Part shown: positions 1 through 64,000 of the stretch, in pieces
Position numbering within the stretch: the first letter of the stretch is position 1
How the letters are laid out: the number at the start of each line of letters is the position of its first letter
From: a virus
IMG/VR virus record: IMGVR_UViG_3300020404_001578
Location: 64,001-128,000 of that record
Direction: 5' to 3' (one strand)
Length of the DNA stretch: 64,000 nucleotides
Notes under the pieces: generated by a model
What the model saw: the letters and a program-made list of their open reading frames with translations, nothing else
Told to the model about the DNA's origin: nothing
Databases searched by the model: none
Program-made: the position numbers and the translations under genes

Positions 1-537
1 TCTTTGTTGCTCCTCTAGTGATAGTGCTTGGAACTTAGCCTGTTGTACAATTTGCATTGCTTGAGCATCTGCTTGTTGAATCTCTTGAGCGATTTGCTGT
101 AGAGGAACCATGTTAGCGATAATCATGTCAATGTTCTCGTCTGTAATAGTTGAATACCCCGCTTCAACTGCCTTTTCAGCATTGATGAAGTTGGTTGTGG
201 TCATATCACTATTGAAGAACGCAAACAATTCTTTGCGTACGATAGTAGTGATTAGGTTTGCAAGTTCAGCGATAAAGACAGGCTGATTCCTTTCGTTTAG
301 ATGATGTAAAAAGAAAGTACTTACTTCGTTAGGATGGGCAGCAAACAAATGGTAGATTTTACCTAATTGGTCTTCGTTACCAAGTGGTCCTCCGACCATA
401 CCCATTGCTGCGCCTGCTATTTGTTGGTCTAGTCCTGTTTGTTGGGCAACATTCATTGCTTCTCCAAACATTGTCCCTAGTGTATTTCCTTGTCCTGTAC
501 CTGTAGGTTGTAGTGAGTTACCCCAATTATTCGCCAT
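1..537 (-). CDS. Hypothetical Gln/Ala-rich helical protein, 3'-truncated by window edge
   Basis: Not in the ORF track. ATG at 537 (MANNWGNSLQPTGTGQ...), GAGGTG RBS at 545-550, frame open to base 1, overlaps the stop of the upstream gene. Confidence 0.75.
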   Translation of the reverse strand, partial: MANNWGNSLQPTGTGQGNTLGTMFGEAMNVAQQTGLDQQIAGAAMGMVGGPLGNEDQLGKIYHLFAAHPNEVSTFFLHHLNERNQPVFIAELANLITTIVRKELFAFFNSDMTTTNFINAEKAVEAGYSTITDENIDMIIANMVPLQQIAQEIQQADAQAMQIVQQAKFQALSLEEQQR

Positions 538-1309
538 TATTTTGCACCTCCGGCTTGTCCGCCTCTGGTGGACCGACTACATAATCAGTTTCAAGTGTTG
601 TGCCTTGAATTTGCTTGGTTTGTAGTAGTCTTTCATCAAAGACTAGGGTAGTGATATCGTTTTCACCTGTAATTGGATTCTTGTATCTAATGATTGGTAT
701 GCCATCTCTTTGCGCTTCATCAAATACTGGGGCCCACTTTGCAAGTAGAGGGTGTTCAGGAGTCTTAGACTTCTTCTTTACTACTGGTACAAATGCTACG
801 CCTCGCTTCTTCATTCGCTTGAAGAATCCTTTGTCATGGGAATGTTCCTCTTGTTGAATCCATCCTTGAAGTAAATGGTACAGTTGTAGATGTTGGGGAC
901 ATAATGTAGAAGGTAGTTGCATACCTGAGCCATATAGTACTCCAGTCCATGCTCTAAAGGGTACAATGTTTCCTTTACCATCTGTCATATATTGTTCCCA
1001 TAAGTCCCCGTAGTCTTGGTGTCTACAGTCTGAACCATCTACTGCGCATTGGTGAGGTTGCATATACTTGTACCTCAATCCTCCGCCAATAAATGGAATC
1101 CATTGTGTACCGGGCAATGTATACCATCTTTTAGTCGGCTTTAGTGCCTTGATTGCGTTCTTTATGTTCTGTTTGCGTGCCTTATCTGGGTCAGGGTGGT
1201 CGCTGAAATCAAATTCTACGACAGGCACTACGGCGTCATAGTTTACATCTCCATTTGCTTGTGGCATATTATTCATTAGTTCCAATAGTCTTTTCTCTCT
1301 GTAATTCAT
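527..1309 (-). CDS. Hypothetical protein, possible metal-binding Cys/His cluster
   Basis: 260 aa; HQCAVDGSDC...LCPQH; translationally coupled to the GTPase gene. Confidence 0.75.
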   Translation of the reverse strand: MNYREKRLLELMNNMPQANGDVNYDAVVPVVEFDFSDHPDPDKARKQNIKNAIKALKPTKRWYTLPGTQWIPFIGGGLRYKYMQPHQCAVDGSDCRHQDYGDLWEQYMTDGKGNIVPFRAWTGVLYGSGMQLPSTLCPQHLQLYHLLQGWIQQEEHSHDKGFFKRMKKRGVAFVPVVKKKSKTPEHPLLAKWAPVFDEAQRDGIPIIRYKNPITGENDITTLVFDERLLQTKQIQGTTLETDYVVGPPEADKPEVQNNGE

Positions 1310-2034
1310 TGTGTAACCCCCATTGCTTTCATTAGCGTTTCTTGCACATTGAAGTTACGTATCGCTGATACTGCATCAATGTGAACGGGAATGCGCATTT
1401 CTTGTAACAAGAATAGATGTTCTCTAAAAACATCAAATATGGGGTGATTGGCGATTAGACCATGTTCCCACATGGCCCAATCTTCGTCTTTTACTAACCA
1501 TTCATCGGCCTTATTTGCCAACAGTATGATTTTCTCTGGCCGGTATTTTCTCCTTCTGAATCTAGTCCACATACCTAGTGCCTTTGGGGGTTTCTTTGAA
1601 GCAAGTGCTTCAACTAAATATCCTAATGCAACTTGATTATCTGTATTATCTTCATCTAGTAAGTGCCTGTGGTCAATAACTACAACTACCGCTTTGATTT
1701 TACGCTCGTACATATCCTTTAGCCACATATACTGGTATTCTTCATGTCCCCCAATATCACGACTAACGACGGTCTTTTTACGACCTTTACTTACTAATCG
1801 CTTTGCACTTGCTTCTGGCATTCTATGTTTAGACGAGAATGCTTTCAGTTTATGATGTGTTCTTTGATTGTCGCCTAATGGTCTAATCAGTCCCGGTGTG
1901 GTTAATTGTTTATCCAATGTCGTCTTACCTGTCATTGATGCCCCATAGACGCCAATATCATACCTAATGTACTCTTTGATTTTGTCAATGAGAGCAATTA
2001 CTGTGTGTGCAAAGACAATCTCGGTTGAGCCCAT
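1306..2034 (-). CDS. Ras-like small GTPase (Arf/Rab/Roc-type P-loop GTPase)
   Basis: G1 GASMTGKTT, G3 DIGG, G4 NKAD and G5 SAI are present in the correct order and spacing. Confidence 0.85.
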   Translation of the reverse strand: MGSTEIVFAHTVIALIDKIKEYIRYDIGVYGASMTGKTTLDKQLTTPGLIRPLGDNQRTHHKLKAFSSKHRMPEASAKRLVSKGRKKTVVSRDIGGHEEYQYMWLKDMYERKIKAVVVVIDHRHLLDEDNTDNQVALGYLVEALASKKPPKALGMWTRFRRRKYRPEKIILLANKADEWLVKDEDWAMWEHGLIANHPIFDVFREHLFLLQEMRIPVHIDAVSAIRNFNVQETLMKAMGVTQ

Positions 2035-2038
2035 CTAA

Positions 2039-2257
2039 TCACCCCAAAATCCAAGATAGGATTCCTCCGTAGTCGGTTCCTTTGTAGATAGCGTAGTCTA
2101 TACCTGCGGTTACTGCCATACCTGTTAGCGTTGCCACTGTTCCCCAGATAAACGCCTTGATTTTCAAGTATCTAAACTGCCAAGTTTGGCCCACGAATAT
2201 AGTTTCCATCAAGCCTTCTTGTTGGTCGTCTTTCAGGTCTTTGAATATCTTGACCAT
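2039..2257 (-). CDS. Small membrane protein
   Basis: 72 aa with hydrophobic segment AFIWGTVATLTGMAVTAGI; sits in the GTPase operon. Confidence 0.7.
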   Translation of the reverse strand: MVKIFKDLKDDQQEGLMETIFVGQTWQFRYLKIKAFIWGTVATLTGMAVTAGIDYAIYKGTDYGGILSWILG

Positions 2258-2343
2258 AATTTATCCCCTGTGTTGCCAACATAGCGTTCCATTTTTTACA
2301 TTTCTTTTGCATTGTTCCCCAGTCATGGTGGTTCCTACACATC

Positions 2344-3316: not shown

Positions 3317-4855
3317 TCACGCTCCAAATTGATTCGGGTCCCTTGCTTGAATGATATTGTCAATTCTCAGGATTTGTATGGCGGCTGTGGTCGCAGACTT
3401 TAGTCCGACCTCAAGTACGCCCATCGGTTCTATTACTTCGTACGGGTTCCCCGTGATTACTCCACCATTAGCCACATTCAAGAAAGCATCGGTGTTTCCT
3501 TGACCATGTGCTGCTCTTAAGTTAATTACTGAAAGACGAGGGTTATGTCCACAGTTTTTGGCTAATGTTAGAGGAATAATTTCAAGTGCCTTAGCATAGG
3601 CTTCAACCGCCAACTGCTCAAGACCTTCAACGGTATTTGCTACCTGTTGTACGTGTAGTGCCATACTTACTTGTGGTGCGCCACCACCTGTTACTACTTC
3701 TGATGAAGTATGTGCTAACCATGTTACACCGATTGCGTCGTCAAGCGCACGGGCTACTTCATCGGCAGCCTCTTGACTTGGTCCAGTGCATAGAACTGAA
3801 TGACGTTGTTGGTTATCATTTAGTTTTGCAAGATGTAGTACGGGTTTATCCCATGATGGAAGAGTATGTTCATAGATTTCTCCACAGTGTCCTAGGTCTT
3901 CCTTTTCTAAATCACCAATACTTGATACAATCATACCGCCTGTTGCCTCGGCAATCAATTCTAGTAGGCTAGCATTACAACGGCGGATAGCCATCATGTC
4001 ATTGCGAGCAAAGTATTCTGAAAGCACTGGGTCAATGTCCTTGCCTCCTACGACTACACTAACGCCTAGATTTTTTAGATGCTCTCCAATGGCTAGAATG
4101 TCAGCCTTACGCTTTTGTGAGTAAGCATCAGCGTCAGCACCTGTTTGGAAGTTTACATTGACTCCTTCGGTGAATCTTGGAATTAGAATATCACAGTCAA
4201 ACAAAGCAATCTTTGCATCAACAATGTGTTCAACCATACCGTGATTCATTTTCTGTTTGTCAATGATAATTCCATCTGCAAGGTCATATGAATCAGTAAT
4301 AGAAGAACCGGGGCGGATAACCATGTTCACGTTAGATGGTTTGGTCTTCTTTGCAGCATTGATACACATCTGAGTTAGATGCTCCTTTGCCGTACCTGCT
4401 TGCTTACCAGACATTGCAGTGCCTGCAATTTGTTCTAGTGTGAAGTCCTTTAGTGCGAGAGTCTTGAGATGTTCAAGTGCGGCGTTCTTTCCGATTTCAA
4501 ATCCATCTTCAATCTGAGCCACATGGACACCGTCTTTCATCAGTATCTCGGCTTGACGACATAATTCGCCGGCCAATAGAATACCACTAGTTGTACCGTC
4601 GTATGCTTCGCTTTCAATAGTGCGAGCAAGACCTACAACAATCTTGGTGGTTGGGTGTTCAAACTTCGTTTCTCTTAGGATAGTTGCGCCGTCGTTAGTA
4701 AAGGTGGCACTGCCTGTATTGTCTACAAGCATCTTATCTCGGCCACGGGGACCAAGTGATGAGGCCACTAAGTTAGCCATTTGCTTTACAACGTCAATGT
4801 TAATCTCTTCGGCGGTTCTAACCTGACTCTGGGTACCATCAATAGCGTTTGCCAT
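3317..4855 (-). CDS. ths: Group II chaperonin (thermosome subunit)
   Basis: SSLGPRGRDKMLVD, TNDGATIL, YDGTTS, GGGAPQ and ILRIDNII are CCT/thermosome signatures. Confidence 0.95.
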   Translation of the reverse strand: MANAIDGTQSQVRTAEEINIDVVKQMANLVASSLGPRGRDKMLVDNTGSATFTNDGATILRETKFEHPTTKIVVGLARTIESEAYDGTTSGILLAGELCRQAEILMKDGVHVAQIEDGFEIGKNAALEHLKTLALKDFTLEQIAGTAMSGKQAGTAKEHLTQMCINAAKKTKPSNVNMVIRPGSSITDSYDLADGIIIDKQKMNHGMVEHIVDAKIALFDCDILIPRFTEGVNVNFQTGADADAYSQKRKADILAIGEHLKNLGVSVVVGGKDIDPVLSEYFARNDMMAIRRCNASLLELIAEATGGMIVSSIGDLEKEDLGHCGEIYEHTLPSWDKPVLHLAKLNDNQQRHSVLCTGPSQEAADEVARALDDAIGVTWLAHTSSEVVTGGGAPQVSMALHVQQVANTVEGLEQLAVEAYAKALEIIPLTLAKNCGHNPRLSVINLRAAHGQGNTDAFLNVANGGVITGNPYEVIEPMGVLEVGLKSATTAAIQILRIDNIIQARDPNQFGA

Positions 4856-6650: not shown

Positions 6651-9470
6651 TCAACCCCACATGAATCCAGTAGATTGAATACCTTCAATTATAACCAATG
6701 ATGAAGCCTTGAATTGTGTGCTATTAGTGAAACTGGTTCCCCCGTTTATTGTTAGATTGGCTACATCGCTACTTGATATTGTATATGCGCCTCCGTCTGT
6801 ATTTACGAAGATTAAGTGAAATGCTTCTTCTGTTGCTCCAACCACTGTGTTTGGAAGATAATTTTGACCGTATTGCCCAGTGGCATCTATTTCCACTGTA
6901 CCGCCAGTGCCTTGGGGAAATGAACTGAGGAACACTATTGTCCCTGAATTGACTTCATTGGTACCAAGAGTAGGGGTTGCGCCGGGTAATATGGGTGTAA
7001 TCAAGGGGCTAGAAAAACTGGTACAGAATGCTTGGCTTACCTTTGCCATTCCAGAAAAGTGTATTCCTCTGTCATCTGTTGTTGTGAGATGGCCGTCTAA
7101 AGCATGTAACTCTATCAAGTCGCCGCCTGAGTCACTTAGAACTCTAACTCCATTACCTCCCCTCACGGTTAGAGTATCTGTTGTACTATCGGCTACAACA
7201 TTCGCCTGTGCTGCTAACGGGGCGAGTGGGAATCTGTTTGCTGTACTGTTTAGGAATGTAATAGTTTCAAAGGCATTGCCACCGCCTCCGCTACCGCCTC
7301 CTGCTAATGTTGTTCCATCTGTAATTTGAATATCGTCACCTGCGTCAGTTGTGAAGTAGAGTTCGGTAGGTGATTCATTCTTAACCCATAACTGCCCATA
7401 TCCTGTTGTATCGCTCTTTGCACTCGCTCTTTCTCCAATCTTAAGTGGACCATCAAATTGGGCTTCGTGGTCTGTACCGTCTTTATCGGAATAGAACATG
7501 AACGCATTGGTATTAGTGCCTACTTGCTTTATGAGAAAGTAGCCATCGCTGAACTCATTAGCGTTTCTAAATACACGAACTTCTTGGTTTTGTCCTGTAA
7601 CTGCTTTAGCATCTAAATCTAATAAACACTCTTCGCTCGCTGTTTGATTTTCTGCTATGATTTGTGCGTGTGAATCTTGCAGTCCTTTAACCTTAAGAGT
7701 TCCAGTCTCAGTCCCTTGTTGTAGCGTAATAGTTGGGTCGGCTGCTGCAACAATATGCAACTCAGTAGTAGGTGCGCTAGTGCCTATACCGACCAAACCT
7801 GCATCGTCAATAATCATCCTCTCGGTACCTGCAGTATCAAACCGAATTTTGTTTTCATCGGTTGATTGTTCAACCTGTATCTTTGTATTATCATCAGCGT
7901 CACGTATAGTTGTAAATGTCACTGCTGCAAGTTGAGTATCTACATATCCTTTAGTTGCAGCATCATTGTTATCGGATGGAGTACCTACTCTTAGTTGAGT
8001 ATCTACGAAGGTACTGTTAGTTGGTGCGTTGTTGGCAATCTGACAACGGAATGCATCTACAGAATCATCCCAAACGAATCTAGTGATTGCAATGTCTGTA
8101 CCACTGTTTTGACCTCGGTCCACTTGGAACCCAGATACGCTACCAGTTACACCTGCGCCTGCATTGTTAGTTTCTCCTTGATTTAATTGAAGAACAGGGT
8201 CCGCATGGCTTACTGTTGTTGATGATACTGTTGTAGTTGAACCAGATATTGTTAAGTCTCCATTAATTGTTACTGCTCCTTCAAACACTGCTGATTTGTC
8301 ATCACCACTGATTGTTACTGCAGTTGCATATGAGTTGAAATTGGCACCGCTACTTCCCGAGGGTGTAACTTGTAATAGAATATCTCCTCCCTTTCCTGTT
8401 CCTTTACCTCCGCCACCACGTAGTTCTAAGTCCCCTCCTGAAAGGTTAGGGTCTGCTCCTATTCCGGCTGAACCGGCGTAGATTCTCAGGTCTACACCTG
8501 CTAACGCCCCGGAGCGTCCGGTTGCGCCAATTTGAGTAGAACCGATAACCGCAGTACCGAGAACAACGTCGCTTGTCAGGAATACGTCGGCATTGGCGTT
8601 TGGTGAAATTATGATGTGTTGGTTGGCGCCTGTGTTTGATATCGTGTTGTGATTGAAGTTGAGATTATCTACATCTAGGCTACCAACTATGTCTACATCA
8701 CCTGTTAGGGTGGTGTCGCCTGTTATGGTGGCATCACCAACTACATCTAATGCATTGGTGGCTCCAGATGCACCGGATGGGTTGATGTGAACACCATTAG
8801 CATTTACCATTAGTACCCGGGTATCTGCCACTACTAAGCCAAGTTGGTTTAGTGCAGTATGTTGAATACCTGTATCAGTATCACTGGCAAATGTGTAAGT
8901 CAAAGCATTTGTGTTAGTTGTATGTGTTTGTGTCGCAAAGATACTTCCTACTTCGCCTATTGCTGCGGCTACAGAACCGACTTGAAATGCAAACTTATCA
9001 GTTGTTTCATTCCAGATGAAATTTACGTTATCTTCATCTCCACGTTCCACTTCAAATCCTGCGCTCTCTGTTGGACCGGCCCCAGAGAAGTCTGAATTGA
9101 GAACTATCTTTGAGTCGCCTATATTGACTGTATTACTGTCTAGTGTTGTTGTGGTGCTTACGATTAACTCTCCTGAAACCGTTAGATTGGCAACTGTTAG
9201 TCTACCTGCTGACGAGTCTGATGTTTTGCTATACACCATGCCGGTATGTCCGCCTAAAGTGGTACCTCCATCATTAAATTGTACTTGTGTATCTGAACCG
9301 CCAACAGATGTACCACCTGCGGGTCCTTGTAGTGTCAGTTCACCATTAGTAATAGAGAAGGTATCAAAGTTACCTATATTCTTTATTCTATGGATACGTC
9401 CATCAATGACACCATCATTGTTCGTATCTACTGATATTCCCGGTGATGATACTTTTGATGTGTATGGCAT
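6651..9470 (-). CDS. Fibre/spike-like adhesin (receptor-binding protein candidate)
   Basis: 939 aa, G/T/S-rich. Segments GSDTQVQFNDGG, GFEVERG/GFQVDRG, DAATKGYVD and DADDNTKIQVE...GTERMIIDDAGLVGIGTSAPTTELHI are typical of viral fibre proteins. Confidence 0.75.
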   Translation of the reverse strand: MPYTSKVSSPGISVDTNNDGVIDGRIHRIKNIGNFDTFSITNGELTLQGPAGGTSVGGSDTQVQFNDGGTTLGGHTGMVYSKTSDSSAGRLTVANLTVSGELIVSTTTTLDSNTVNIGDSKIVLNSDFSGAGPTESAGFEVERGDEDNVNFIWNETTDKFAFQVGSVAAAIGEVGSIFATQTHTTNTNALTYTFASDTDTGIQHTALNQLGLVVADTRVLMVNANGVHINPSGASGATNALDVVGDATITGDTTLTGDVDIVGSLDVDNLNFNHNTISNTGANQHIIISPNANADVFLTSDVVLGTAVIGSTQIGATGRSGALAGVDLRIYAGSAGIGADPNLSGGDLELRGGGGKGTGKGGDILLQVTPSGSSGANFNSYATAVTISGDDKSAVFEGAVTINGDLTISGSTTTVSSTTVSHADPVLQLNQGETNNAGAGVTGSVSGFQVDRGQNSGTDIAITRFVWDDSVDAFRCQIANNAPTNSTFVDTQLRVGTPSDNNDAATKGYVDTQLAAVTFTTIRDADDNTKIQVEQSTDENKIRFDTAGTERMIIDDAGLVGIGTSAPTTELHIVAAADPTITLQQGTETGTLKVKGLQDSHAQIIAENQTASEECLLDLDAKAVTGQNQEVRVFRNANEFSDGYFLIKQVGTNTNAFMFYSDKDGTDHEAQFDGPLKIGERASAKSDTTGYGQLWVKNESPTELYFTTDAGDDIQITDGTTLAGGGSGGGGNAFETITFLNSTANRFPLAPLAAQANVVADSTTDTLTVRGGNGVRVLSDSGGDLIELHALDGHLTTTDDRGIHFSGMAKVSQAFCTSFSSPLITPILPGATPTLGTNEVNSGTIVFLSSFPQGTGGTVEIDATGQYGQNYLPNTVVGATEEAFHLIFVNTDGGAYTISSSDVANLTINGGTSFTNSTQFKASSLVIIEGIQSTGFMWG

Positions 9471-11507: not shown

Positions 11508-11643
11508 CGGAACAGACGATATTCTTGTTAAAGAAGTACCAGAACATAGCCTTGAGGCTGAATATCAAGCCCTCAAGTTGAAGGCTGATTCTATGGGTGC
11601 TTCTGTAGAAGTTCCAGACCTTGCTCCAATCACTGTTGAGTGA
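11464..11643 (+). CDS. Small hypothetical protein (59 aa)
   Basis: Not in the ORF track: MAKESKLVTLQVKINGTDD...APITVE*. Confidence 0.55.
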   Translation: MAKESKLVTLQVKINGTDDILVKEVPEHSLEAEYQALKLKADSMGASVEVPDLAPITVE

Positions 11644-12055
11644 AGTCTTGGATTAGATAGTATCCAATAGCACCAGTAAGAGCGTATCTAATGGCCGTAA
11701 GGCTAGATATCGCCTTAACTTGCTTGAGGGTCTTCTTACCTAAGGTATTGATGCGTTTACTCGCAGCGTTAGCATAAACAATGCTACCAAGTAGAACAAC
11801 ACCGCCTATTGCAAACCTGTTTGCCATAGTAGGTGAAAGAGTAGTACCTAAATTTGGTACATTGCCAAAGAATACTCCTTCTCCGTTCCTTACTGGTCCT
11901 ATACCATTCCTGCGTTTACTTAATGGCGCAGCCCCTTTCTCATACTTAGGGTGAAAGGCTTTGAATGCAAAGTCTTGGAACCCATCAACCATCATTTGAC
12001 GGTCTTGTACCTGTGGGTGGTGTCTAGGAATCTTCTGAGCGTAAGGATGGTTCAT
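11630..12055 (-). CDS. Small virion membrane protein with NLG motif
   Basis: VPNLG followed by two hydrophobic helices. Confidence 0.7.
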   Translation of the reverse strand: MNHPYAQKIPRHHPQVQDRQMMVDGFQDFAFKAFHPKYEKGAAPLSKRRNGIGPVRNGEGVFFGNVPNLGTTLSPTMANRFAIGGVVLLGSIVYANAASKRINTLGKKTLKQVKAISSLTAIRYALTGAIGYYLIQDFTQQ

Positions 12056-12225
12056 TGTAAGCCCTCCTGTGCTATCAGTGCTATGTTTGCTATGGAATAA
12101 CCAATAAACATGGAACCTAATGCATTCCTACTTCCTTTGAAATGGTAGAATGCGGTTCCTAGATTAATGGCTGTAACTAATGCCGTTAATCTTTGAGAGC
12201 CAGACCATTGACTTAGGGGCTTCAC
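12052..12225 (-). CDS. Small membrane protein (57 aa)
   Basis: Not in the ORF track. GTG start, MKPLSQWSGSQRLTALVTAINLG...; overlaps both neighbours by 4 nt. Confidence 0.6.
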   Translation of the reverse strand: MKPLSQWSGSQRLTALVTAINLGTAFYHFKGSRNALGSMFIGYSIANIALIAQEGLQ

Positions 12226-12821: not shown

Positions 12822-12825
12822 AGTA

Positions 12826-51107: not shown

Positions 51108-54100
51108 CTACCTGCCCTCTTGAAAATCTGGTTCAGTCATTATGTGTCCACGCTTCTTTGCGACGTTACTTCTAGCGTATGCGGAGCCGAACTGTGGAAT
51201 GCGGGGGCGTGCTTTCACAGTAGAAGGTCTTGGTTGAGATTGTGTGAACCAGCCCAAGTTAGCACTTGTTGGTTCGTGTGGGTTAATCAAGAATATCTCT
51301 TGGATATCTGTCTTTTCTCCTGTTATTGGCTTTCTTGCACCGCCGAGAGATGTTACTCTGTCGCCGGCATACTTGTTGCTTACGTCTTCTATTGTGTGGT
51401 TATTCATTCCGCTAAGGCCCCCTAGTGGTATTTTCTTTCCGACTGGTAGCAAGGTCTTTGCTCTTATCTTGCTATCAGTTTGGAATGGTTTTGGTCTGAG
51501 GAAATCAAATATTCCCCAGTTATCTTGCTTCGGTGGTTCCGCTTCCGCAGGTGCTTGTACCGAATCGTGGTATGCTTGGTGGCTAACTTCTACCATCTTG
51601 TCTGGTATTTGTCCTGCCGTGAGTAAAGATTCAGAAGGCGACATTCCACCGCTAAGTGCAGCAAGTTGCTCTCTAATTTCTCCTGAAAGATTGATTTTCT
51701 GTTTCGCATCATACCTAAGTGAGTTAGTGCCTACAAAGTATACTAAAGCCTCTCCTGCTGCATTGTCTTTTATTGATTTCTCTGTTGTTTTCCAATCACC
51801 TGCTACTTCTTCAAAGTCTAGTACTGGTCCTGCCCAGTTAGTGGGTACTTCTACAATACCGATTGAATACGGGAATGAAAACTCTTGGCCTTGCATTGAA
51901 ACAAGATAATTGAGTGGGTTATCTGGGTCGGCACCTTCAAGTCCGGGGATTGTGTTTCCTTCTTTGTCTTTCATTCCTGCATTAATGTCATAGAACCATT
52001 GTGTACTCAAATCAATACCAAATACCTCTTTCCATGCCATCTTTACATTTGCTTCCACGGCTCTTTTGTTGAATACTAAGTCTATGTCATCTTCTAAATC
52101 AGCCGTAGTAATAACATCCACTAATTTCAGTAAGTCACTATCTTTACTTCCTCCCATGTTGTTTGTTCGCTTTAATCCATAATTTTCAATGTGTATATCT
52201 ACTGCTAACTTATTGGGTTTGGTTGTTAGGCCTAAGTATGCTCCCTTTTGGAAACCAGTAAGTGCTTGTCCGATAACAACCAATTTACATCCGGGTGAAA
52301 ACTCTCCTTCTTTCCAGTATATGTTAGAGAAGTTTGGTTGAGTAAGGTACGCTTGCTTGGCAACATCTGTAATAGCAAATGTTTGTGTGTCAGCGATATG
52401 CATAGCATTATGCTTGCCTCTTCTCAAACAACATACTACTCCGCTATAGTCTGGTGCGCCTTGTAGTGTTGTGTTGCCTACTGTAACTGTTGCTGATGTG
52501 CGTTGTCCGTCTTGAATAACTTCTGGTCTTCCTACGATATTGTAAATCACTCCCTTTTTACTATTGTAGGTTGGGTAACAATGTGCGGTCCCTCCATTCT
52601 TTGAGTTAGACGACATACTAAATCCTTCCCAGTGTTTCAAATCTGGGTCTTTGGAGGATAGTTGTCTTGGGAATCTAAAGTACACTACAAACTTGCCATC
52701 GCCTTTGATTTCTGGGTCATATGGTGGGTGTCGTCCTAAAGTCCACTTGCCTGTTTTTGGATTGTACCATTCTACCTTGACTGCTAATCTGCGTACGTCT
52801 TTGTTGCTGTAATTGCCATTGGATTCGTTTGCTTTGTTACCTTCTGGGTCTGAACTTGGCATACCGGCAATTGCCTTTGGTAGTTTGTACCTAAATTGTT
52901 TAGATGGACCTATGGCTGCATCAATAACCGTTCCTGCAGGCCATTTTGCATTCAAACGTTTTTTCTCATTAGATTCTTTTACTTGATTAGGGAATCTGGT
53001 TGCATTCATTTGTTGCATGAACCAAATCTTTTCCCTTGATACTTTTCCTTTAGACCAATGGTATTCGGGGTTACCCGGCGCACGAACTTCGGGTACTACT
53101 GTGTCTACTGCCTTCTTGACGAATTTTGTTGTACTCTTTGCGGCTTTCTTGATGCCCTTTCCTGCTTTCTTAATGCCCTTCTTTAATTTCTTGAATAACC
53201 CTAAGTTAGAGAAATCACCAACTGCTTGGTCGTATGCTAACAACTGTTCATCACTGATGTTTCCTATACCATCAAAGACTCGGTTTTTAGATTTGCTATC
53301 TCCAAATCTAACTTGTCCTGTAAGTGAATCGTCGTCGTGATAAATCATCTGTCCAACCATTGCAATTGGGATTGCGGACCCCATTCTATAGTTAGGCTTG
53401 GTGATTGCGTGCCATCCAAAATTATTGTCGTCTGAAAAGTCAGCGTAGTAATATCCTGCTCTAAATGCGTGTAGCGCAGTAGGATATGAAACCCATGCGG
53501 GTCCAATAGGTTTGGTTGGTCCGCCTTTAGCAAAAGTGGAAGTCTTACCAGTATATCCATGTCGCTTGAAGGAATGCTTGCTTAATTTACCGTCCCAGAA
53601 TTCTCGGTCCCCGACCGTGGTCTTTCCTTTTGCTTTGAACTGTAATTCGTTTTGTGGTATGAAACCTAAGTTTCCTAGCGTTGGACTAATCATTGTGTTA
53701 GGTGTTCTAGTTCTTGACAACTGCAGCGAGTTGTTTGCGATGAACCTTCTTTCCTCATCTGTTAATTGTGAGCCATCAACGTCAGATGGAATAGATGTAG
53801 CCAAGGCAATCTTTAGACCAACTAACTTAGGTAATGGGATTCGTACAGTAAAGGAACCTTCACCAGTACGAACAGGTCTAATAAACAACAATGATTCTAC
53901 TCCACTAGATACGTGAGAACCCACTAGGATTGCATTCCCATCCCCTAGTGTCTTGTAATGAATAGTAATATCTTCGTCAGTAACGAAAGTTTGTTTGTTC
54001 TTTTTCCATCTACCGGCTTCGTATAGAGTGTGTACTCTACCTCCTCCTTCGTGTTGGAATCCTAAATACATCAATGTCAATGGTCGGCCTGTAGGCAAGG

Positions 54101-54176
54101 AAGTGCTTACGTTTCCTATAGACCCGAATCTACGGTGTCTACGGGACTGACGGGCCTGCCTTGCTGCACGATTCAT
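51108..54176 (-). CDS. Large virion protein with multiple NLG motifs and an internal amphipathic helix
   Basis: GNLG-FI, SNLG-LFKKLKK, ANLG-WF. Confidence 0.7.
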   Translation of the reverse strand: MNRAARQARQSRRHRRFGSIGNVSTSLPTGRPLTLMYLGFQHEGGGRVHTLYEAGRWKKNKQTFVTDEDITIHYKTLGDGNAILVGSHVSSGVESLLFIRPVRTGEGSFTVRIPLPKLVGLKIALATSIPSDVDGSQLTDEERRFIANNSLQLSRTRTPNTMISPTLGNLGFIPQNELQFKAKGKTTVGDREFWDGKLSKHSFKRHGYTGKTSTFAKGGPTKPIGPAWVSYPTALHAFRAGYYYADFSDDNNFGWHAITKPNYRMGSAIPIAMVGQMIYHDDDSLTGQVRFGDSKSKNRVFDGIGNISDEQLLAYDQAVGDFSNLGLFKKLKKGIKKAGKGIKKAAKSTTKFVKKAVDTVVPEVRAPGNPEYHWSKGKVSREKIWFMQQMNATRFPNQVKESNEKKRLNAKWPAGTVIDAAIGPSKQFRYKLPKAIAGMPSSDPEGNKANESNGNYSNKDVRRLAVKVEWYNPKTGKWTLGRHPPYDPEIKGDGKFVVYFRFPRQLSSKDPDLKHWEGFSMSSNSKNGGTAHCYPTYNSKKGVIYNIVGRPEVIQDGQRTSATVTVGNTTLQGAPDYSGVVCCLRRGKHNAMHIADTQTFAITDVAKQAYLTQPNFSNIYWKEGEFSPGCKLVVIGQALTGFQKGAYLGLTTKPNKLAVDIHIENYGLKRTNNMGGSKDSDLLKLVDVITTADLEDDIDLVFNKRAVEANVKMAWKEVFGIDLSTQWFYDINAGMKDKEGNTIPGLEGADPDNPLNYLVSMQGQEFSFPYSIGIVEVPTNWAGPVLDFEEVAGDWKTTEKSIKDNAAGEALVYFVGTNSLRYDAKQKINLSGEIREQLAALSGGMSPSESLLTAGQIPDKMVEVSHQAYHDSVQAPAEAEPPKQDNWGIFDFLRPKPFQTDSKIRAKTLLPVGKKIPLGGLSGMNNHTIEDVSNKYAGDRVTSLGGARKPITGEKTDIQEIFLINPHEPTSANLGWFTQSQPRPSTVKARPRIPQFGSAYARSNVAKKRGHIMTEPDFQEGR

Positions 54177-56317
54177 CGGGTCATCCTCTCCATCGCAGAC
54201 CTAGTGCGAGGGAAGATGCCGGCAAGGGACTGTCTGTTTTCAACACGTTCCTGACTTTTCTTGAGCCGTTCTTCCTCCGCAATTCTTTGCTTATCATAGA
54301 AAGCCCGACGTTCAGCCGTCAATTGGCGTACTGCGGGTAGTTGTTTTGATTTCCTACTACGGATAGTGGCTGCAATACCTAATGCTCTTGCATGACCAAG
54401 TTCTGCAATAGTGACCTTCTTTTGAACAAATCTTGGGTTACCTACTATTTGCATGAACTGTGCTTCAGCCTCTTGTTTTGTTTTAATTTGACCAACCGCA
54501 TATTTGTTTACCAACTTACGAAGTGATTCTTTGCCTGCTGCACTAAATTCCATGCCTTGCATTGCCAAGAAGTACTTTTCATATTCATTGATACCCTGTT
54601 GCATTCCTGCAACATCTCGCTTTATCATATCTCCTCCCTTTGGAGTATGTGCTTGTTTTAACGTTCTATAGATACGAGTCTTGGCTTCGTCAAATGGAAT
54701 CTGACGCTTGTCAAATTGTCTGATGATTGCTTTTGCTTTGTTGATGCCCTCTCCAGAAACATGGCCAGATTGGTTAAGTTCCATTAGTTTGTTAGACAGA
54801 CACTTCTCAAGTGATTTGGTTTCAGAAAGGTTCTCCTTGTTTTCTTGGTATAGTCTACTTGGATTTAGATTACCAATTTGGTCGGATACTACTTGTAGTT
54901 CACCTTGTAAGTTCATTTCCTGTTGCTTGAGTTTTCTAGCAATTGCGCCTAATGAGTTTGCTTCATTCTCAAGTTTAGAAAGTTCTTGCATATTGTCACG
55001 GTGGTTGTCAGCAAGGGTATCATCTCTACGGATAGCACCTAGATTCGCTTCACCTAATTTGAATGACCTTCTATAAGTTGAAATTCTTGACTTGATTGGT
55101 GATAGTCTGTTTGCCACACTTTGTTGTTTAGCACGAACCTTGGCTAGATGTTCTTCAAGTTGTTTTGCTTGGAGTACTGCGGCACTACGGCTCTTGGAAA
55201 TATTTGCTTTCAACATTCTAAGGCGTTGTTGAGATATTGAATCACTTTTCATCTTTGCAGCAGAACGACGGGCTGCAATGTTGCGGAGTCTTGCTTGTTG
55301 TGCAGCAAATGCTTTCCTGCGCTCAATTTCCTGTTTCACCTTTTGTTGGTTTTGAATTGCAACTGCCTTAGGTCTAGGTCTGTTGATTCTTGATGGTGTT
55401 CTTCTAACAATCGGGCGGCGCACTGTGCCTCGTCTTGCTCTCATTCTGTCCATAGATGCTTTTCGTGCAGCCATGTATCGGTCGTAGACTGGTTTAGAAA
55501 CACGCATTGGTTTTCCAGATTTACTTGGGATAACGTACGTTTGCCTTCTACTAGAGCGACTGATGATTCTTCTTGCGTCCTTAGGGGTGGGTCCCACACG
55601 ACTACGACTTGCTCTTTGCTTCTGTTGTTCCAAATATCTTCGGCGCATCATTGCAATACGAGCATTCTGTTGCTGTAATCTATTCTTATTGAGTTGTGAT
55701 TGAGCAACCTTTGCGTTTCTTGCTTGAACGGATGCTTCTTGAGATAATGCCCTTCTTTTACTAGGTGAGCGAGTTCTTCTAGACATACGCTTGAACATCC
55801 TAGACATTCTAGAAGGACGCTTGATAATACTACGTGCCTTTCTGACTGGACTTTGAGGCATACGACGAACATATCCTCGGCGTGGTGAACGGCGAACAAC
55901 TCTTTTGATTTGTGGGGGTTTTGGTGAAGGCTTTGCTACATTGAATGGTTTGGCAGCCTTTGATTGTTGGAGTCTGTTATTCTTTGCTGCAATGGATGCT
56001 TGAATGCTTCTACGCAGTGGTACTCTTCTTCTTCTTTGTCTACGAATGGGTCTAACTTTGGTAGGCATTCTGTACCTCATGTACTTATTGCGCTTGGAAT
56101 ATTTTATGGCAGGAGAGTTTTGTAAATCAATTCGCAACTCCTTTGCTTTGGCTGATTGAGTTGCAGCAATACGTCTTGCTTCACTGAGATTATCCACACG
56201 GCGATTCATAATGTCCCTACGAATCTTTGCACTTCTTTTCTCAAGTTGATGAATTGCACTTTTTGCTGCTTTGACTTCTCTGGGAGTGTTAGGTGGTCGT
56301 ACTGGAATCTTTGCCAT
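54173..56317 (-). CDS. Highly basic Arg/Ser-rich protein with coiled coil (core protein candidate)
   Basis: Start MAKIP at 56317; R/K/S-rich N-terminal half; ANLG, NSLG and AELG motifs. Confidence 0.7.
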   Translation of the reverse strand: MAKIPVRPPNTPREVKAAKSAIHQLEKRSAKIRRDIMNRRVDNLSEARRIAATQSAKAKELRIDLQNSPAIKYSKRNKYMRYRMPTKVRPIRRQRRRRVPLRRSIQASIAAKNNRLQQSKAAKPFNVAKPSPKPPQIKRVVRRSPRRGYVRRMPQSPVRKARSIIKRPSRMSRMFKRMSRRTRSPSKRRALSQEASVQARNAKVAQSQLNKNRLQQQNARIAMMRRRYLEQQKQRASRSRVGPTPKDARRIISRSSRRQTYVIPSKSGKPMRVSKPVYDRYMAARKASMDRMRARRGTVRRPIVRRTPSRINRPRPKAVAIQNQQKVKQEIERRKAFAAQQARLRNIAARRSAAKMKSDSISQQRLRMLKANISKSRSAAVLQAKQLEEHLAKVRAKQQSVANRLSPIKSRISTYRRSFKLGEANLGAIRRDDTLADNHRDNMQELSKLENEANSLGAIARKLKQQEMNLQGELQVVSDQIGNLNPSRLYQENKENLSETKSLEKCLSNKLMELNQSGHVSGEGINKAKAIIRQFDKRQIPFDEAKTRIYRTLKQAHTPKGGDMIKRDVAGMQQGINEYEKYFLAMQGMEFSAAGKESLRKLVNKYAVGQIKTKQEAEAQFMQIVGNPRFVQKKVTIAELGHARALGIAATIRSRKSKQLPAVRQLTAERRAFYDKQRIAEEERLKKSQERVENRQSLAGIFPRTRSAMERMTR

Positions 56318-56319
56318 GT

Positions 56320-57216
56320 TTATCCCTCCCTTGTAATCAATGCTAATCCGAGTATCACCCATGGAAGGGCCGATACGCTTGATGCGATGGACTCGTCCTC
56401 TATATCAATACCGCCTAATTTGGGGAAGATAGTTTCTTGCGCTGCTTCCTTGAAATCACTCCAGTTTTTGTATATAGTAGCATTGTTGATATTCTTTTCA
56501 GCCAACATTTCTTGCTCACTTATACGTTGCATAAGTACTGCGTTTCTAGTTTGCATCTCTTTCAATTGCTCATTGATTAAACGGTTTCTTTCTTGACCTA
56601 GTCGCAAACGGTTTAGATATTGACGACGCATTTCATCTTTCTCTAATTTATGCTTCCAACGGTCAGTTGTTGAGATACTTTTACCGGGCAATCCCCTTGG
56701 TCCTCTTTGACCTCTTGCACCGGGGTATCCTCTTGGTCCTTGTTGTCCTGATGGTCCTGCAGGCCCTATTGGTCCTGTAGGTCCTACAACTAACTTAGGT
56801 TTGAGGGCCTTGTTTACACGTCTAGGTTTGCTTGTAATTGCTCGCACTTCTTTTGGTGCTGCTCTAATTACTGGTTTTGGTTTGAGATTTTTAGGAGGTA
56901 GTGGTTTAGGTTTGGGTACTCTTATTCCCATTCTCTTTAGTGCTTCACGTTGTTTACTTGACAATGACTTTGATGCTTTGGCCTTTGAACGAGTAATGAA
57001 TGAGCGTGTACTTCTTCTTACTGGTTTAGGTACTGATTTACTTGCTACCTTTGCTTTTTCCATCATTTTTCTAAATGTGGAAGTTTTGCGAACCGATGAA
57101 GTTTTTGCTTTCGCTTTCTTTTTTATTCGCTTGAGTGTTTTCTTGAAAGAGAATCCTAACTCACCGTAGGGAGAATGAGGGCTATACCCTAGGTGGTGCG
57201 GAGGCCTTCCTATCAA
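56320..57216 (-). CDS. Basic collagen-repeat protein with C-terminal TM
   Basis: GELG-FSF leader, K/R-rich region, about 11 Gly-X-Y triplets, coiled coil, TM. Confidence 0.75.
   Translation of the reverse strand: MIGRPPHHLGYSPHSPYGELGFSFKKTLKRIKKKAKAKTSSVRKTSTFRKMMEKAKVASKSVPKPVRRSTRSFITRSKAKASKSLSSKQREALKRMGIRVPKPKPLPPKNLKPKPVIRAAPKEVRAITSKPRRVNKALKPKLVVGPTGPIGPAGPSGQQGPRGYPGARGQRGPRGLPGKSISTTDRWKHKLEKDEMRRQYLNRLRLGQERNRLINEQLKEMQTRNAVLMQRISEQEMLAEKNINNATIYKNWSDFKEAAQETIFPKLGGIDIEDESIASSVSALPWVILGLALITREG
56683..56784 (-). repeat. Collagen-like (Gly-X-Y)n
   Basis: GPTGPIGPAGPSGQQGPRGYPGARGQRGPRGLPG. Confidence 0.9.
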
Positions 57217-57933: not shown

Positions 57934-58623
57934 TCACCTTCTCCCTTTTATGAAACCAAGTACCTTACTATATGGGTGTTGATAACCCGTGCCTAAGTTA
58001 GCCGAGGACACACCACTTAATGAATTGATTCCTCCGGCAATGTTTTGGTGGTGTATCGGACTTCTTGCTGTGCTTGCATCAGCAATAAGCGGGTATACCT
58101 TGCTTACTGGTACTGATTGGTTGAGTTTGAAATTAGGGAAAATTAATTCGGCAACAATCCACTTGTTACCGTATTTCTTAGTTGGTGCCATAGTTTTAAC
58201 GCAGCCCATTACGTGGTTGAATACTCCATCTTTGTTAGAGTCTACAATAATTGCACCTGTTTGATATCCTAATGCGCCGAGTAGTGATGCCCATACAATA
58301 ACGAAGTCGTCGCAATCAGCACCAGAGTTTCCTGCTTCTACGTCCTTTAGGATACGTCTAGCCGTCATAAAGTACTCTACTGCCCATGGGTCCTTAACAT
58401 AGTGTACATTGTTTTGTACCCATTTGGTAATAGCAGTAATCTCTCCTAACTCGTCGTGTTGTCGTACACCTGCAGCATGAATAATTTGTAATGCTTTTTG
58501 TCGGACATACCTATCTCTAAGTCCATCCTCAATCAATCTGCGGAGGTATTCAACAACAACTTTGAATCGTTGGTCCATTGTTGTACCGGGCTTGAACTTT
58601 ACACGAAGAACCTGCTCGGCCAT
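57934..58623 (-). CDS. Transglutaminase-like cysteine protease (maturation protease candidate)
   Basis: WVQNNVHYVKDP...ADCDDFVIVWASLLGALGY...HV; C-terminal ANLG extension. Confidence 0.8.
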   Translation of the reverse strand: MAEQVLRVKFKPGTTMDQRFKVVVEYLRRLIEDGLRDRYVRQKALQIIHAAGVRQHDELGEITAITKWVQNNVHYVKDPWAVEYFMTARRILKDVEAGNSGADCDDFVIVWASLLGALGYQTGAIIVDSNKDGVFNHVMGCVKTMAPTKKYGNKWIVAELIFPNFKLNQSVPVSKVYPLIADASTARSPIHHQNIAGGINSLSGVSSANLGTGYQHPYSKVLGFIKGRR

Positions 58624-58660
58624 GTTATGGCCCAATCTATTCTTCGTATTAACACCTACG

Positions 58661-59086
58661 CTATTCATCAATAGTAGTAATTTCAATCATTACTTTAGGA
58701 CCTTTTTCTTGGGCTGCTGTTTTCTTGATAACTTGTAAGTTACATATCTGGGAATCATTATGATACGCTACTCCTTCCAACCCGTCTGCAATACCTTTGT
58801 ACAAGTTATCCACATCTGGTTTTTTGGTATTCCATTTTTCCGGTACTGGTGTTCGCTTCCTATGTGCTGACTTAGGTAAGGGCATAATACACTTAATCCA
58901 TACTTTGAGAGGTCCAGAGAATGGTTCTTCATGTCCATGTTCACGCATTGCTTTCATTCCAAATTCCTTGACCATTGTTTTCCAATCTCTAGATTTCTTT
59001 GGGTCGTACGCACGTGCGTAACCTCCGAATGTAGTAAGTCTGGGTCTACCCTGCGCAACCGGAGTGCCGGGAATTATTATTCGCAC
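58661..59086 (-). CDS. rusA: RusA-family Holliday junction resolvase
   Basis: PVAQGRPR and KPDVDNLYKGIADGL...NDSQI. Confidence 0.9.
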   Translation of the reverse strand: MRIIIPGTPVAQGRPRLTTFGGYARAYDPKKSRDWKTMVKEFGMKAMREHGHEEPFSGPLKVWIKCIMPLPKSAHRKRTPVPEKWNTKKPDVDNLYKGIADGLEGVAYHNDSQICNLQVIKKTAAQEKGPKVMIEITTIDE

Positions 59087-62351: not shown

Positions 62352-62446
62352 ATTGTGTGAATAGATGTATGAATGTTGTAAACAAGAATACAATGTTTTA
62401 GAAAAAACACAATAGTAATATTCTACCTTAATCGTCGTACGTATCA

Positions 62447-63004
62447 ATGGAAACCAATAATTCTGAAACACGTTCACAAAAACAAGTTGCCCGTGAAAAG
62501 AAAAAGCGAGAAGATAAAATCAGAAACATATTCTGGACAAAAAACCTTGAAACAGAACCAAAAAAGAAAAGATTGCATATTGCAATTCCATCTTCTTCAA
62601 TAGAAACTATCAGTGACATTAGACAAATGCATTCTGTTGAATGTTGGAAGTATATTCCTGACGTAGTGTTAGATGCATTGTTCAATGAACAGATACATCT
62701 TCGTGATGAGGACCCTACAGACCCTACATATGTTCTAACTGATAGGGAGATTGTTCGTATGTCTTTGGAACTGTTGCGTTTGTATTTGATGGGTGCTGAC
62801 CATTACAACCGTAGATTACTAAGGAAACTAATTACTGCACATGGTCAAGAGTTGCAACCAGAGAAGTTGTTGGCGAATGTAGAAAGTGGTGCAAGGTATA
62901 CTCTTGCAGTAGATGCGTTACTTGAGATGCGTGAACAGGAAGAGGCTGCAATGAAGTCCGATGAAGCGTTTGACTTCTCGGCTGCTGACTTCCTAGATGA
63001 TTAG
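62447..63004 (+). CDS. Hypothetical protein, possibly DNA-binding
   Basis: 185 aa with basic N-terminus; divergent from an AT-rich intergenic region. Confidence 0.65.
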   Translation: METNNSETRSQKQVAREKKKREDKIRNIFWTKNLETEPKKKRLHIAIPSSSIETISDIRQMHSVECWKYIPDVVLDALFNEQIHLRDEDPTDPTYVLTDREIVRMSLELLRLYLMGADHYNRRLLRKLITAHGQELQPEKLLANVESGARYTLAVDALLEMREQEEAAMKSDEAFDFSAADFLDD

Positions 63005-63441
63005 TCAATGCGTATTTCGCAAATAGAAAGTGTAAGTACGGCGTCATTAGACATACGATTCTTCATGTGCCACTTCTCTACGTACTGTGTTGCTGATTCC
63101 TCATCGGTGAATGTTGCAAGTAATCCTAATGGGTGACTTTGCATTGTTGGTTCGGATATATCTACAATAACTGCACCCTCTGGTACTTCGTCTACACCCA
63201 TGATAGCATCCTTCAACTCTTCGTTACCCTCGGCGGCGTACTTTACTTTACGAGCCAACCTACCGCAGTCGCCCTTAGAACACCATGTAGATATTCTGTC
63301 TGGTGAGTACACTACCCATATTGATGAGGCTTTACTCAAGTCTGATGCACGATATGCATTTACTTCTTCTTCAAGTGAACTAATTTTATCTTGAAGTGTG
63401 TTGATAGTGATGCTTAATGCATCTACAACTGGGTCACCCAT
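63001..63441 (-). CDS. Hypothetical protein
   Basis: 146 aa, N-terminal coiled coil. Confidence 0.65.
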   Translation of the reverse strand: MGDPVVDALSITINTLQDKISSLEEEVNAYRASDLSKASSIWVVYSPDRISTWCSKGDCGRLARKVKYAAEGNEELKDAIMGVDEVPEGAVIVDISEPTMQSHPLGLLATFTDEESATQYVEKWHMKNRMSNDAVLTLSICEIRID

Positions 63442-63447
63442 AGGGCA

Positions 63448-63999
63448 TCAACCTTCATAACTGTGCGACGAAGTAACAATTGCTTCAAGTTTACTTGCAG
63501 GTAGCATGATTTCAATACCGGGGATTGGATTACGTAGTACGAGTTTTCCTTTCCTACGGAAGTTGTTTCGCAGTACACCTACTCGGTCTGGTTCATCAAG
63601 TACCATATCTTGGACTAAGAAACTGCCTTGGTAATTCTTCATCCACCATGAACGTGAGATACAGAAAGCAACTTGAGTGCGTTCATTTACAATTAATGCG
63701 TCTGGGGTTGGGCCAACCCAAAGTTGCCAACCATCTTCGGGTTTGCAAGTGTAGTTAGCAGGGCGAGTAGCCTTTGCAGAATCAAGTAAACGCTTTTGTA
63801 GAATTGCAGTTTGTTGTTCTGTAAGTTTTCTACCGTGGGCTTGTAGTGTTCTATATGAATCGGCAAACAATTGAAGATTCTCTTGGTAGATTTGTAGTGG
63901 GGTCTTTTCTTCCACCTCTTCTACCTCTTTGGTTTCTTCTACTGTTTCTTCAATGGTGATTTCATCATCAACGGAATCGTGTATCCCGTCATTATCTGC
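63448..63999 (-). CDS. Hypothetical protein, probably 5'-truncated by window edge
   Basis: The frame of track ORF 63448..63915 stays open to the window end (ADNDGIHDSVDDEITIEE...). Confidence 0.6.
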   Translation of the reverse strand, partial: ADNDGIHDSVDDEITIEETVEETKEVEEVEEKTPLQIYQENLQLFADSYRTLQAHGRKLTEQQTAILQKRLLDSAKATRPANYTCKPEDGWQLWVGPTPDALIVNERTQVAFCISRSWWMKNYQGSFLVQDMVLDEPDRVGVLRNNFRRKGKLVLRNPIPGIEIMLPASKLEAIVTSSHSYEG

Positions 64000-64000
64000 A

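Follow-up and report, generated by a model that had tools for sequence, protein, structure and literature searches.

Gene content around a small FtsK/HerA-type ATPase

The 64,000-nt window that we analysed (positions 64,001 to 128,000 of the IMG/VR virus record IMGVR_UViG_3300020404_001578) carries about 58 plausible open reading frames (ORFs), which are tightly packed, lie nearly all on the minus strand and continue past both window ends. Its GC content ranges from 0.40 to 0.47, and its genes are mostly orphans, Pfam assigning only few of them. One gene encodes a 261-residue P-loop ATPase of the FtsK/HerA superfamily, and the two most conserved orphan proteins of the window, of 204 and 332 residues, are encoded no more than 6 kb from it. 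The contig to which the window belongs apparently represents magrovirus group D, and the window holds what is probably the particle-building module of this lineage; we narrowly favour the reading that it comes from a tailless virus using an ATPase like that of Sulfolobus turreted icosahedral virus (STIV) together with jelly-roll-type proteins. The region around the ATPase gene comprises the following features.

11630..14315, minus strand: six small proteins of 67-206 residues, four with a strict transmembrane-like segment (hydropathy scan, translations)
14312..16342, minus strand: 676-residue orphan, directly downstream of the 332-residue gene (46-53% identity to relatives)
16363..17361, minus strand: 332-residue beta-sandwich (jelly-roll-like), candidate capsid shell or vertex protein (structure model)
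17525..18439, minus strand: 304-residue acidic Ala/Gly/Thr-rich protein, between the 204- and 332-residue genes (43-51% identity to relatives)
18478..19092, minus strand: 204-residue protein, putative major capsid protein (conservation)
19882..20961, minus strand: 359-residue Arg-rich basic protein, candidate DNA-condensing core protein (translation, pI)
21781..22566, minus strand: 261-residue FtsK/HerA-superfamily P-loop ATPase, candidate genome-packaging ATPase (Pfam, PHROG, PDB profile, hhalign)
22566..23054, minus strand: 162-residue protein with HEYGH (HExxH), overlapping the ATPase start (motif in translation)

A first-pass annotation, made from the sequence of the window, had named a small FtsK/HerA packaging ATPase, and family searches bear this out. 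The 261-residue protein matches AAA_22 (E = 1.4e-7), DUF87/HerA (E = 4.9e-6) and TraG/TrwB-type families in Pfam, and among PHROGs it matches phrog_2666 best (E = 4e-21) and an FtsK/SpoIIIE-like family (E = 7e-8). It carries a Walker A motif (GMTRSGKT) and a Walker B motif (VAIDE), and its length fits the range of packaging ATPases, about 200-270 residues. When a profile built from five orthologues was searched against all PDB sequences, only STIV B204 (E = 0.014) and STIV2 B204 (E = 0.56) aligned end to end, the other matches being RecA concatemers that aligned over the P-loop only. Comparison with STIV1 B164 by hhalign gave a probability of 80% and E = 1.3e-5 over 146 columns. Judged from these profile comparisons, the ATPase is a relative of the enzyme that packages the genome of STIV, a tailless archaeal virus, the similarity being modest. 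The family phrog_2666 is labelled ‘terminase large subunit’, and the STIV record gives the packaging ATPase B164 the same label, which may explain that of the PHROG. The GenBank phage collection contained no relative of either the ATPase or the 332-residue protein.

The ATPase is 66-69% identical to its relatives. Downstream of its gene lie those for a 193-residue acidic protein and the protamine-like 359-residue protein, followed by two small ORFs on the plus strand, of which one has weak Pfam similarity to NikA, and by the 204-residue gene. The 162-residue HEYGH protein is kept in all four relatives and has no Pfam match; its HExxH motif makes it a possible metalloprotease. G+C-rich inverted repeats occupy the intergenic intervals 17362-17524 and 19719-19881 on either side of the 204-, 304- and 332-residue genes. 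They have a common CCCCTCTATGGGGGCG / CGCCCCTCTATCTGGG-like core and could be terminators or regulatory hairpins.

Conserved orphan proteins as capsid candidates

The 204-residue protein is by far the most constrained gene product, being 97-98.5% identical to its relatives, compared with 66-69% for the ATPase and 57% for the thermosome. We found 70 homologues, all from marine metagenomes, and no Pfam, PHROG or PDB match, including in a PDB profile search. From its conservation we infer that it is a candidate major capsid protein. The adjacent 304-residue protein belongs to no Pfam or PHROG family.

The 332-residue protein is 74-84% identical to its relatives and has 209 homologues. Its AlphaFold2 (AF2) model (predicted local distance difference test (pLDDT) 69.5, predicted template modelling score (pTM) 0.70) is an all-beta sandwich of eight or so strands with long low-confidence loops. 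Foldseek searches of PDB and BFVD with this model returned nothing at E≤1e-3, and many jelly-roll capsid proteins, including those of SH1, polyomavirus (VP1), picornaviruses and PBCV-1, stand in the list of weak matches. In VIA-align the best match was a capsid chain of SPV1 (Z 4.8, in a listed range of Z 3.3-4.8), and the spike of PM2, P31 of PRD1/PR772, VP17 of P23-77, cupins and nucleoplasmin-like sandwiches were listed as well. We therefore describe the modelled fold as generically and weakly jelly-roll-like, with no relationship to capsid proteins demonstrated. A PDB profile search with the 332-residue alignment found nothing, nor did hhalign comparison of its profile with the STIV capsid protein B345, and hhalign found no similarity to the 676-residue neighbour. 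Fold prediction for 14312-19092, which the first-pass annotation had advised, covered two proteins: it yielded a jelly-roll-like sandwich for the 332-residue protein but no capsid fold, and the model of the 204-residue protein failed.

A profile search with the 332-residue family among 1.8 billion representatives gave 59 matches only. Its C-terminal domain (residues ~130-310) recurs at the C-terminus of proteins of 416-1016 residues, some of which bear Ig-like repeats and receive the PHROG labels virion structural, baseplate and tail-fibre. Distant relatives that also bear thermosome and resolvase genes encode tandem paralogues of this family, of 260, 577 and 720 residues (L123:9173-14563), and another distant relative encodes a 921-residue member with Ig-like repeats (L125:1-4033). 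Viruses of the PRD1 kind offer a precedent for a shell domain common to major, vertex and spike proteins. The idea that the 204-residue protein is fused to the N-terminus of the 577-residue paralogue was dropped, as hhalign of the 204-residue profile found nothing there. The 676-residue gene, without a Pfam or PHROG family, occupies the position where relatives have large paralogue-bearing proteins, and ESM Atlas matches of both the 676- and the 204-residue protein were own-kind clusters only, labelled viral. One homologue of the 332-residue protein (P0077, 87% identical) is deposited under a ‘Flavobacteriales bacterium’ metagenome-assembled genome (MAG), which, as the gene content of the element is archaeal, most likely reflects a binning error.

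A circular genome of about 144 kb without recognisable head-tail genes

Exact protein matches place the window at ~15,639-79,638, reverse strand, of the ENA contig ERZ833580 NODE_16_length_143638 (143,638 bp). The first reading, that the window is open at both ends and comes from an unusually large element exceeding 64 kb, is borne out: it is 44% of a double-stranded DNA genome of roughly 144 kb, from a marine lineage that is abundant and uncultivated. A 117-kb Tara contig, 99.98% identical, spans both ends of the 143.6-kb contig with a gap of ~255 bp, and by this bridge the map is circular, at ~143.9 kb. IMG/VR relatives measure 46-140 kb; they include G001 (140,336 bp), which is rated complete and is collinear with the window. 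Its ‘direct terminal repeat’ in IMG/VR is an exact 55-bp end overlap (L009 start / L017 end), as long as an assembler k-mer. Two window proteins have homologues in marine assemblies by the hundred (Tara, JGI, ENA, Logan), and the longest contigs that carry them cluster at 134-144 kb in many independent assemblies. DNA of the lineage is present in runs from 12 studies of marine metagenomes; size fraction is absent from the run records, so the runs do not separate virus from plasmid.

Outside the window, the genome encodes replication and repair proteins, namely PriS, an ERF recombinase, MCM, an ATP-dependent ligase, an AAA_33 kinase-like protein, a PD-(D/E)XK nuclease, a family B DNA polymerase (PolB), two RNase H proteins and an AAA ATPase. 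It also encodes TFIIB/TFB, a 1609-residue Rpb1/RpoA-like protein (RNA_pol_Rpb1 domains 1-5) and an Rpb5/RpoH-like protein, along with SWIB, a serine recombinase, a pentapeptide protein and many orphans. The replicative polymerase, of which the first reading had seen none in the window, is thus elsewhere on the contig, and the flanks consist of viral or replicative genes, not of cellular housekeeping genes. The three transcription genes are at L118:8723-9640, 12921-17750 and 18845-19099 of the contig, respectively, and no Rpb2/RpoB-like subunit was seen in its Pfam annotation; together they would be a partial virus-encoded archaeal transcription apparatus. No tRNA gene lies in the window, and G001 has one, a tRNA-Arg(CCG) at 30,366-30,440 (L010:10366-10440).

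Neither Pfam nor PHROGs detected terminase, portal, HK97 capsid or tail families in the window. The precomputed Pfam annotation of the whole 143.6-kb contig likewise contains no head-tail genes, and neither does the half of G001 outside the window (73 ORFs scanned with Pfam and 72 with PHROGs, plus the RNA polymerase ORF), where the scans gave replication, recombination and transcription families only. An HK97 capsid, terminase or portal gene elsewhere on the contig would have counted against the first reading, and none is recognisable either there or in G001. A PHROG family labelled ‘portal’ (phrog_15528, E = 5e-12) did appear in the window scan and was discarded as a false alarm: the match falls inside the 934-residue G001 orthologue of the 1272-residue NUDIX/HAD ORF, around the conserved NUDIX stretch, and each of 14 control cellular genomes is likewise matched by this family. 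PHROG matches labelled ‘tail fibre’ and ‘collagen-like minor tail’ appear to reflect collagen-type repeats (Pfam Collagen). An HK97-fold capsid protein had no sequence-family match anywhere, and fold models cover two orphan proteins, one of which failed. At the sensitivity of the profiles used, head-tail genes are thus undetectable in these genomes. A terminase large subunit does not normally escape such searches, which makes a hidden tailed virus unlikely.

Other genes of the window

The remaining features lie on either side of the region described above.

1306..2034, minus strand: 242-residue small-GTPase-like protein (Pfam Roc 0.002, sub-threshold; 52% identical to G001)
3317..4855, minus strand: thermosome (group II chaperonin) subunit (Pfam Cpn60_TCP1 1e-120)
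6651..9470, minus strand: 939-residue acidic Gly/Thr/Ser/Asn-rich protein (40% identical to a 1118-residue G001 protein)
23059..30672, minus strand: 2537-residue multi-module protein (Pfam DUF5824 1e-21; HD and YbjQ weak)
30602..35083, minus strand: 1493-residue protein with an ATP-dependent DNA ligase OB domain (Pfam DNA_ligase_A_C 3.6e-8)
35086..38942, minus strand: orphans of 957, 191 and 133 residues (no significant family; the 957-residue protein is 28% identical to its G001 orthologue)
38927..42745, minus strand: 1272-residue protein with HAD phosphatase, NUDIX and YbjQ domains (NUDIX 2.4e-19, Acid_phosphat_B 5.7e-9, YbjQ 2.8e-8)
42729..56362, minus strand: large orphans of 394, 910, 140, 713, 515, 94, 1022 and 729 residues (pI 9.5-11.7 for most; collinear in G001)
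56320..57216, minus strand: 298-residue basic protein with collagen triple-helix repeats and a C-terminal transmembrane-like segment at residue 276 (Pfam Collagen 2.5e-6)
57934..58686, minus strand: 250-residue weakly transglutaminase/cysteine-protease-like protein (57% identical to G001)
58661..59086, minus strand: RusA Holliday-junction resolvase (Pfam RusA 7.5e-31; PHROG phrog_140 3.5e-39)

Basic proteins had been noted at first reading and are indeed prominent, with pI values of 12.0, 11.7 and 11.2 for the 359-, 729- and 298-residue proteins. The 359-residue protein begins with about 150 residues of RRRKSPARRKTT-type repeats, which are followed by a hydrophobic Gly/Ala-rich C-terminal half, and only its C-terminal part is kept in G001. 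More than 15 membrane proteins had also been counted, a figure that a strict hydropathy scan lowers to 13 of the 58 ORFs. The four among the small ORFs at 11630-14315 stand beside the candidate capsid genes, an arrangement that is no more than suggestive of an internal lipid membrane. The orphan run at 42729-56362 matches no Pfam family, and its members are putative virion components. The 939-residue protein, which has no Pfam or PHROG family, would by its composition be fibre- or spike-like. For the proposed transglutaminase-like protease, similarity to Transglut_core stays below the Pfam threshold (E = 0.0066, 17 bits against a cut-off of 23), leaving the 250-residue protein a candidate maturation protease.

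The giant ORFs are punctuated by the dipeptide Asn-Pro (NP). The 2537-residue protein contains 15 NP dipeptides where 6.8±2.4 are expected, and 10 occurrences of [KRNQ]NP where 1.5±1.2 are. Six of its N-terminal NP sites are kept in alignments with four orthologues, among them G001 at 36% identity, and the modules between NP sites are wholly present or absent among orthologues. NP, mostly after Lys, Arg, Asn or Gln, is over-represented 2-7 times at 23059-30672, 38927-42745 and 42729-43913. Self-cleavage at Asn-Pro is known from reovirus mu1 (N42-P43) and from FlhB, YscU and EscU (N-PTH). The pattern seen here fits a polyprotein or cassette architecture of NP-delimited modules, with cleavage being putative. 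The N-terminal part of the 2537-residue ORF (~30000-30200) also contains a JAMM-like motif, H-T-H-P-x(6)-S-x-S-S-A-D, that Pfam does not detect.

The sole sizeable plus-strand island, at 10207-11507, encodes small proteins with paired, zinc-ribbon-like CxxC motifs that are kept in G001; these may have a regulatory role, their transcription diverging from that of the structural genes.

Archaeal affinity and assignment to magrovirus group D

Shine-Dalgarno-like cores (GGAGGTGAT family) precede 26 of the 58 starts, against 8.6% of random positions, an enrichment of about five-fold. These are the expression signals that the first-pass annotation had called archaeal; the motifs are there, but they point to a prokaryotic host and not specifically to an archaeal one. 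A eukaryotic host, which SWIB, Rpb1, the GTPase, collagen and the polyproteins had brought to mind, is ruled out by this strong signal of prokaryotic translation and by the operon-like packing. That the element is archaeal is upheld by its TFB, RNA polymerase A-like, RpoH-like, MCM, PriS, PolB and thermosome genes. Among annotated viral sequences, those of tailed haloarchaeal viruses match its PolB best (24% identity), as has been described for magroviruses.

The thermosome subunit, likewise recognised at first reading, matches Cpn60_TCP1 over residues 27-505. Its best cellular matches are all archaeal, and they reach 33-40% identity across all archaeal phyla, so identity alone is uninformative on the host. 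In the GenBank phage collection it has GroEL-level matches only. We built a tree of 94 thermosome sequences with FastTree, a quick method. Five viral thermosomes are monophyletic (support 100) and group (support 96) with nine sequences from the Thermoplasmatota sample, within a Thermoplasmata clade (98-99); one of these nine shares its 90%-identity cluster with a ‘Candidatus Poseidoniaceae archaeon’ protein. The phylogeny that had been proposed as a check thus puts the viral clade beside a set including Poseidoniaceae, inside Thermoplasmatota. Given the long viral branch and the quick tree method, the tree lends moderate support to a host link with Poseidoniales (Marine Group II, MGII), which agrees with Philosof et al. 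A 2.6-kb fragment in a Thermoplasmatota MAG (L098, G228:C18:280-2642) carries a thermosome N-terminus 84% identical to that of the window and is probably a piece of a related element co-binned with the putative host group.

Philosof et al. (2017) described magrovirus group D from Tara contigs and never found its morphogenetic block; they defined the group by PolB, a thermosome subunit, a resolvase and RNA polymerase A, all archaeal-like (PMC5434244). A 2025 paper still lists the group as ‘MCP-lacking’ (PMC11706807). The contig of our window carries all four genes (PolB, thermosome, resolvase/recombinase and RNA polymerase A-like), and we assign it on this basis to group D, to which it apparently belongs. 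Calling it a new lineage, as had been done, was therefore too strong: its gene content matches a group seen since 2017 and unexplained (PMC5434244, PMC10160649). The particle-forming genes of this already reported lineage are not described in the literature that we searched.

Interpretation and alternatives

In the reading that we favour by a small measure, the element would be a virus whose particle is tailless, probably contains a membrane and is built from non-HK97 proteins of the jelly-roll type. The FtsK/HerA-type ATPase would fill the particle with DNA, which the Arg-rich 359-residue protein would condense, and the enzyme modules, freed from the giant proteins by Asn-Pro cleavage, may be carried inside. 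A virion as complex as those of nucleocytoplasmic large DNA viruses (NCLDV) and adenoviruses, which had first been supposed, remains speculative, and the giant multi-enzyme proteins are at most putative parts of the particle.

Several observations weigh against this reading. The link between the ATPase and STIV is marginal at the database-wide level (E = 0.014). The AF2 model of the 204-residue protein, computed with 23 homologues, has a pLDDT of 39 and is unusable, and all structural matches of the 332-residue protein have Z <5, within the noise range of VIA-align (wide and second-look searches). Its domain, found at the ends of repeat-rich proteins, would fit a fibre-head or adhesin role equally well. 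A very divergent HK97 protein could still lie among the orphans, two of which were folded. The genome has a circular map and serine recombinases, and the 55-bp overlap of G001 most likely stems from the assembly of a circular graph and is no genuine terminal repeat. The assignment to group D is argued from gene content and not from a PolB tree with the original sequences. Finally, Xu et al. (2023) found no structural genes in group D, reported enrichment in the cellular fraction and suggested a plasmid-like nature (PMC10160649).

Among the alternatives, a virus with a new, non-icosahedral particle is unlikely but deserves the most weight; the particle might, for instance, be enveloped, pleomorphic or spindle-shaped, or consist of a nucleoprotein core within a membrane. 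The 204- and 332-residue proteins would then form no jelly-roll shell, and the ATPase would serve in DNA pumping or membrane remodelling, within an architecture for which no counterpart is known. The many membrane proteins are in keeping with such a particle, as is the protamine-like protein with its membrane-anchor-like tail, and it would also accommodate the lack of a specific capsid fold match, the absence of a confident fold for the 204-residue protein and the way in which the 332-residue domain behaves in relatives, like a modular domain of surface proteins. Icosahedral internal-membrane viruses, however, have small ATPases of the STIV B204 type as a hallmark, and the similarity to that type runs end to end; moreover, the weak structural matches of the 332-residue protein are mostly jelly-rolls of icosahedral capsids.

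We also consider it improbable that the element is a capsid-less, plasmid-like extrachromosomal element of Poseidoniales, as Xu et al. suggested for group D. DNA segregation or transfer would then be the task of the ATPase, and the conserved orphan genes would encode surface or membrane proteins. A plasmid would explain the circular map, whose only end repeat is the 55-bp assembler-type overlap, the serine recombinases/resolvases, the reported cellular-fraction enrichment (PMC10160649) and the presence of Tara metagenome (‘METAG’) assemblies among the carrier contigs, and no capsid protein is proven. It sits poorly with a genome length constrained to 134-144 kb across many samples and with the extreme purifying selection on the small 204-residue orphan. 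Pfam and PHROG scans of the window and G001 found no relaxase, VirB4 or coupling-protein family, and at 261 residues the ATPase has the size of viral packaging enzymes and is far shorter than coupling proteins. Relatives, furthermore, carry fibre-like, collagen-like and Ig-repeat ‘virion structural’ domains, and IMG/VR and CheckV class them as viral, a weak and automatic judgement.

A head-tailed (HK97-fold) magrovirus whose structural genes have diverged past profile detection is very improbable: PolB and the thermosome do link the element to tailed magroviruses and haloviruses (PMC5434244) and fold models cover few of its many orphans, but neither complete genome has a terminase by Pfam or PHROGs, an FtsK/HerA-type ATPase like STIV B204 is found instead, and the literature also reports no structural genes for group D.

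If the element is the tailless virus that we favour, a larger and more doubtful claim would follow, which we put forward only tentatively: this would be the first prokaryotic lineage to join the scheme of jelly-roll capsid and FtsK/HerA ATPase to a genome about four times the largest known for that scheme, with its own RNA polymerase subunits and TFB, a chaperonin, a protamine-like core and Asn-Pro-processed giant polyproteins. It would mirror in archaea the step that leads from small tectivirus-like viruses to eukaryotic giant viruses, would be abundant in the surface ocean, and would raise the size ceiling of prokaryotic tailless membrane-containing viruses about four-fold. Poseidoniales, among the most abundant archaea of surface seawater, would have a second, unrelated and much larger kind of virus besides the tailed magroviruses, and the giant proteins punctuated by Asn-Pro would offer a new example of polyprotein-style expression among prokaryotic DNA viruses. 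Group D has been known since 2017 as abundant marine archaea-associated DNA, its nature unresolved among virus, plasmid and cell fragment; to this we add a genome closed at ~144 kb, with no recognisable head-tail genes elsewhere on it, and a concrete candidate morphogenesis module around the STIV-like ATPase.

Comparison with known systems

The closest comparison is with the published group D contigs, which are likewise marine, MGII-associated and without head-tail structural genes. The papers on group D report no closed genome and no morphogenetic block, and they leave its nature open between virus, plasmid and cell, whereas the present genome is closed, at ~144 kb, and has a candidate morphogenesis module. 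The tailed magroviruses A-C and E (Magrovirales) and the tailed haloviruses resemble the element in their large PolB replication module and chaperonin gene and, for the magroviruses, in their putative host group. They differ in having genomes of 65-100 kb with an HK97 capsid, portal, terminase, prohead protease and tail genes, none of which is detectable here.

Adenovirus and asfarvirus polyprotein processing and the Asn-Pro self-cleaving proteins may be compared with the giant ORFs in that NP stands at module junctions and candidate proteases are encoded in the same array.

With Turriviridae (STIV, STIV2) the element shares a small P-loop ATPase collinear with STIV B204/B164. With Turriviridae, PRD1, PM2, SH1/HHIV-2 and SPV1 together it shares an ATPase gene near a conserved beta-sandwich protein and small membrane proteins, and the capsid protein of SPV1 is the best, albeit weak, structural match of the 332-residue model. 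The double jelly-roll or paired single jelly-roll capsid proteins of these internal-membrane viruses are not demonstrated here. Internal-membrane icosahedral viruses of this kind have genomes of 10-35 kb, in contrast to the ~144 kb of the present element, which encodes its own RNA polymerase subunits, TFB, a thermosome and giant multi-enzyme proteins.

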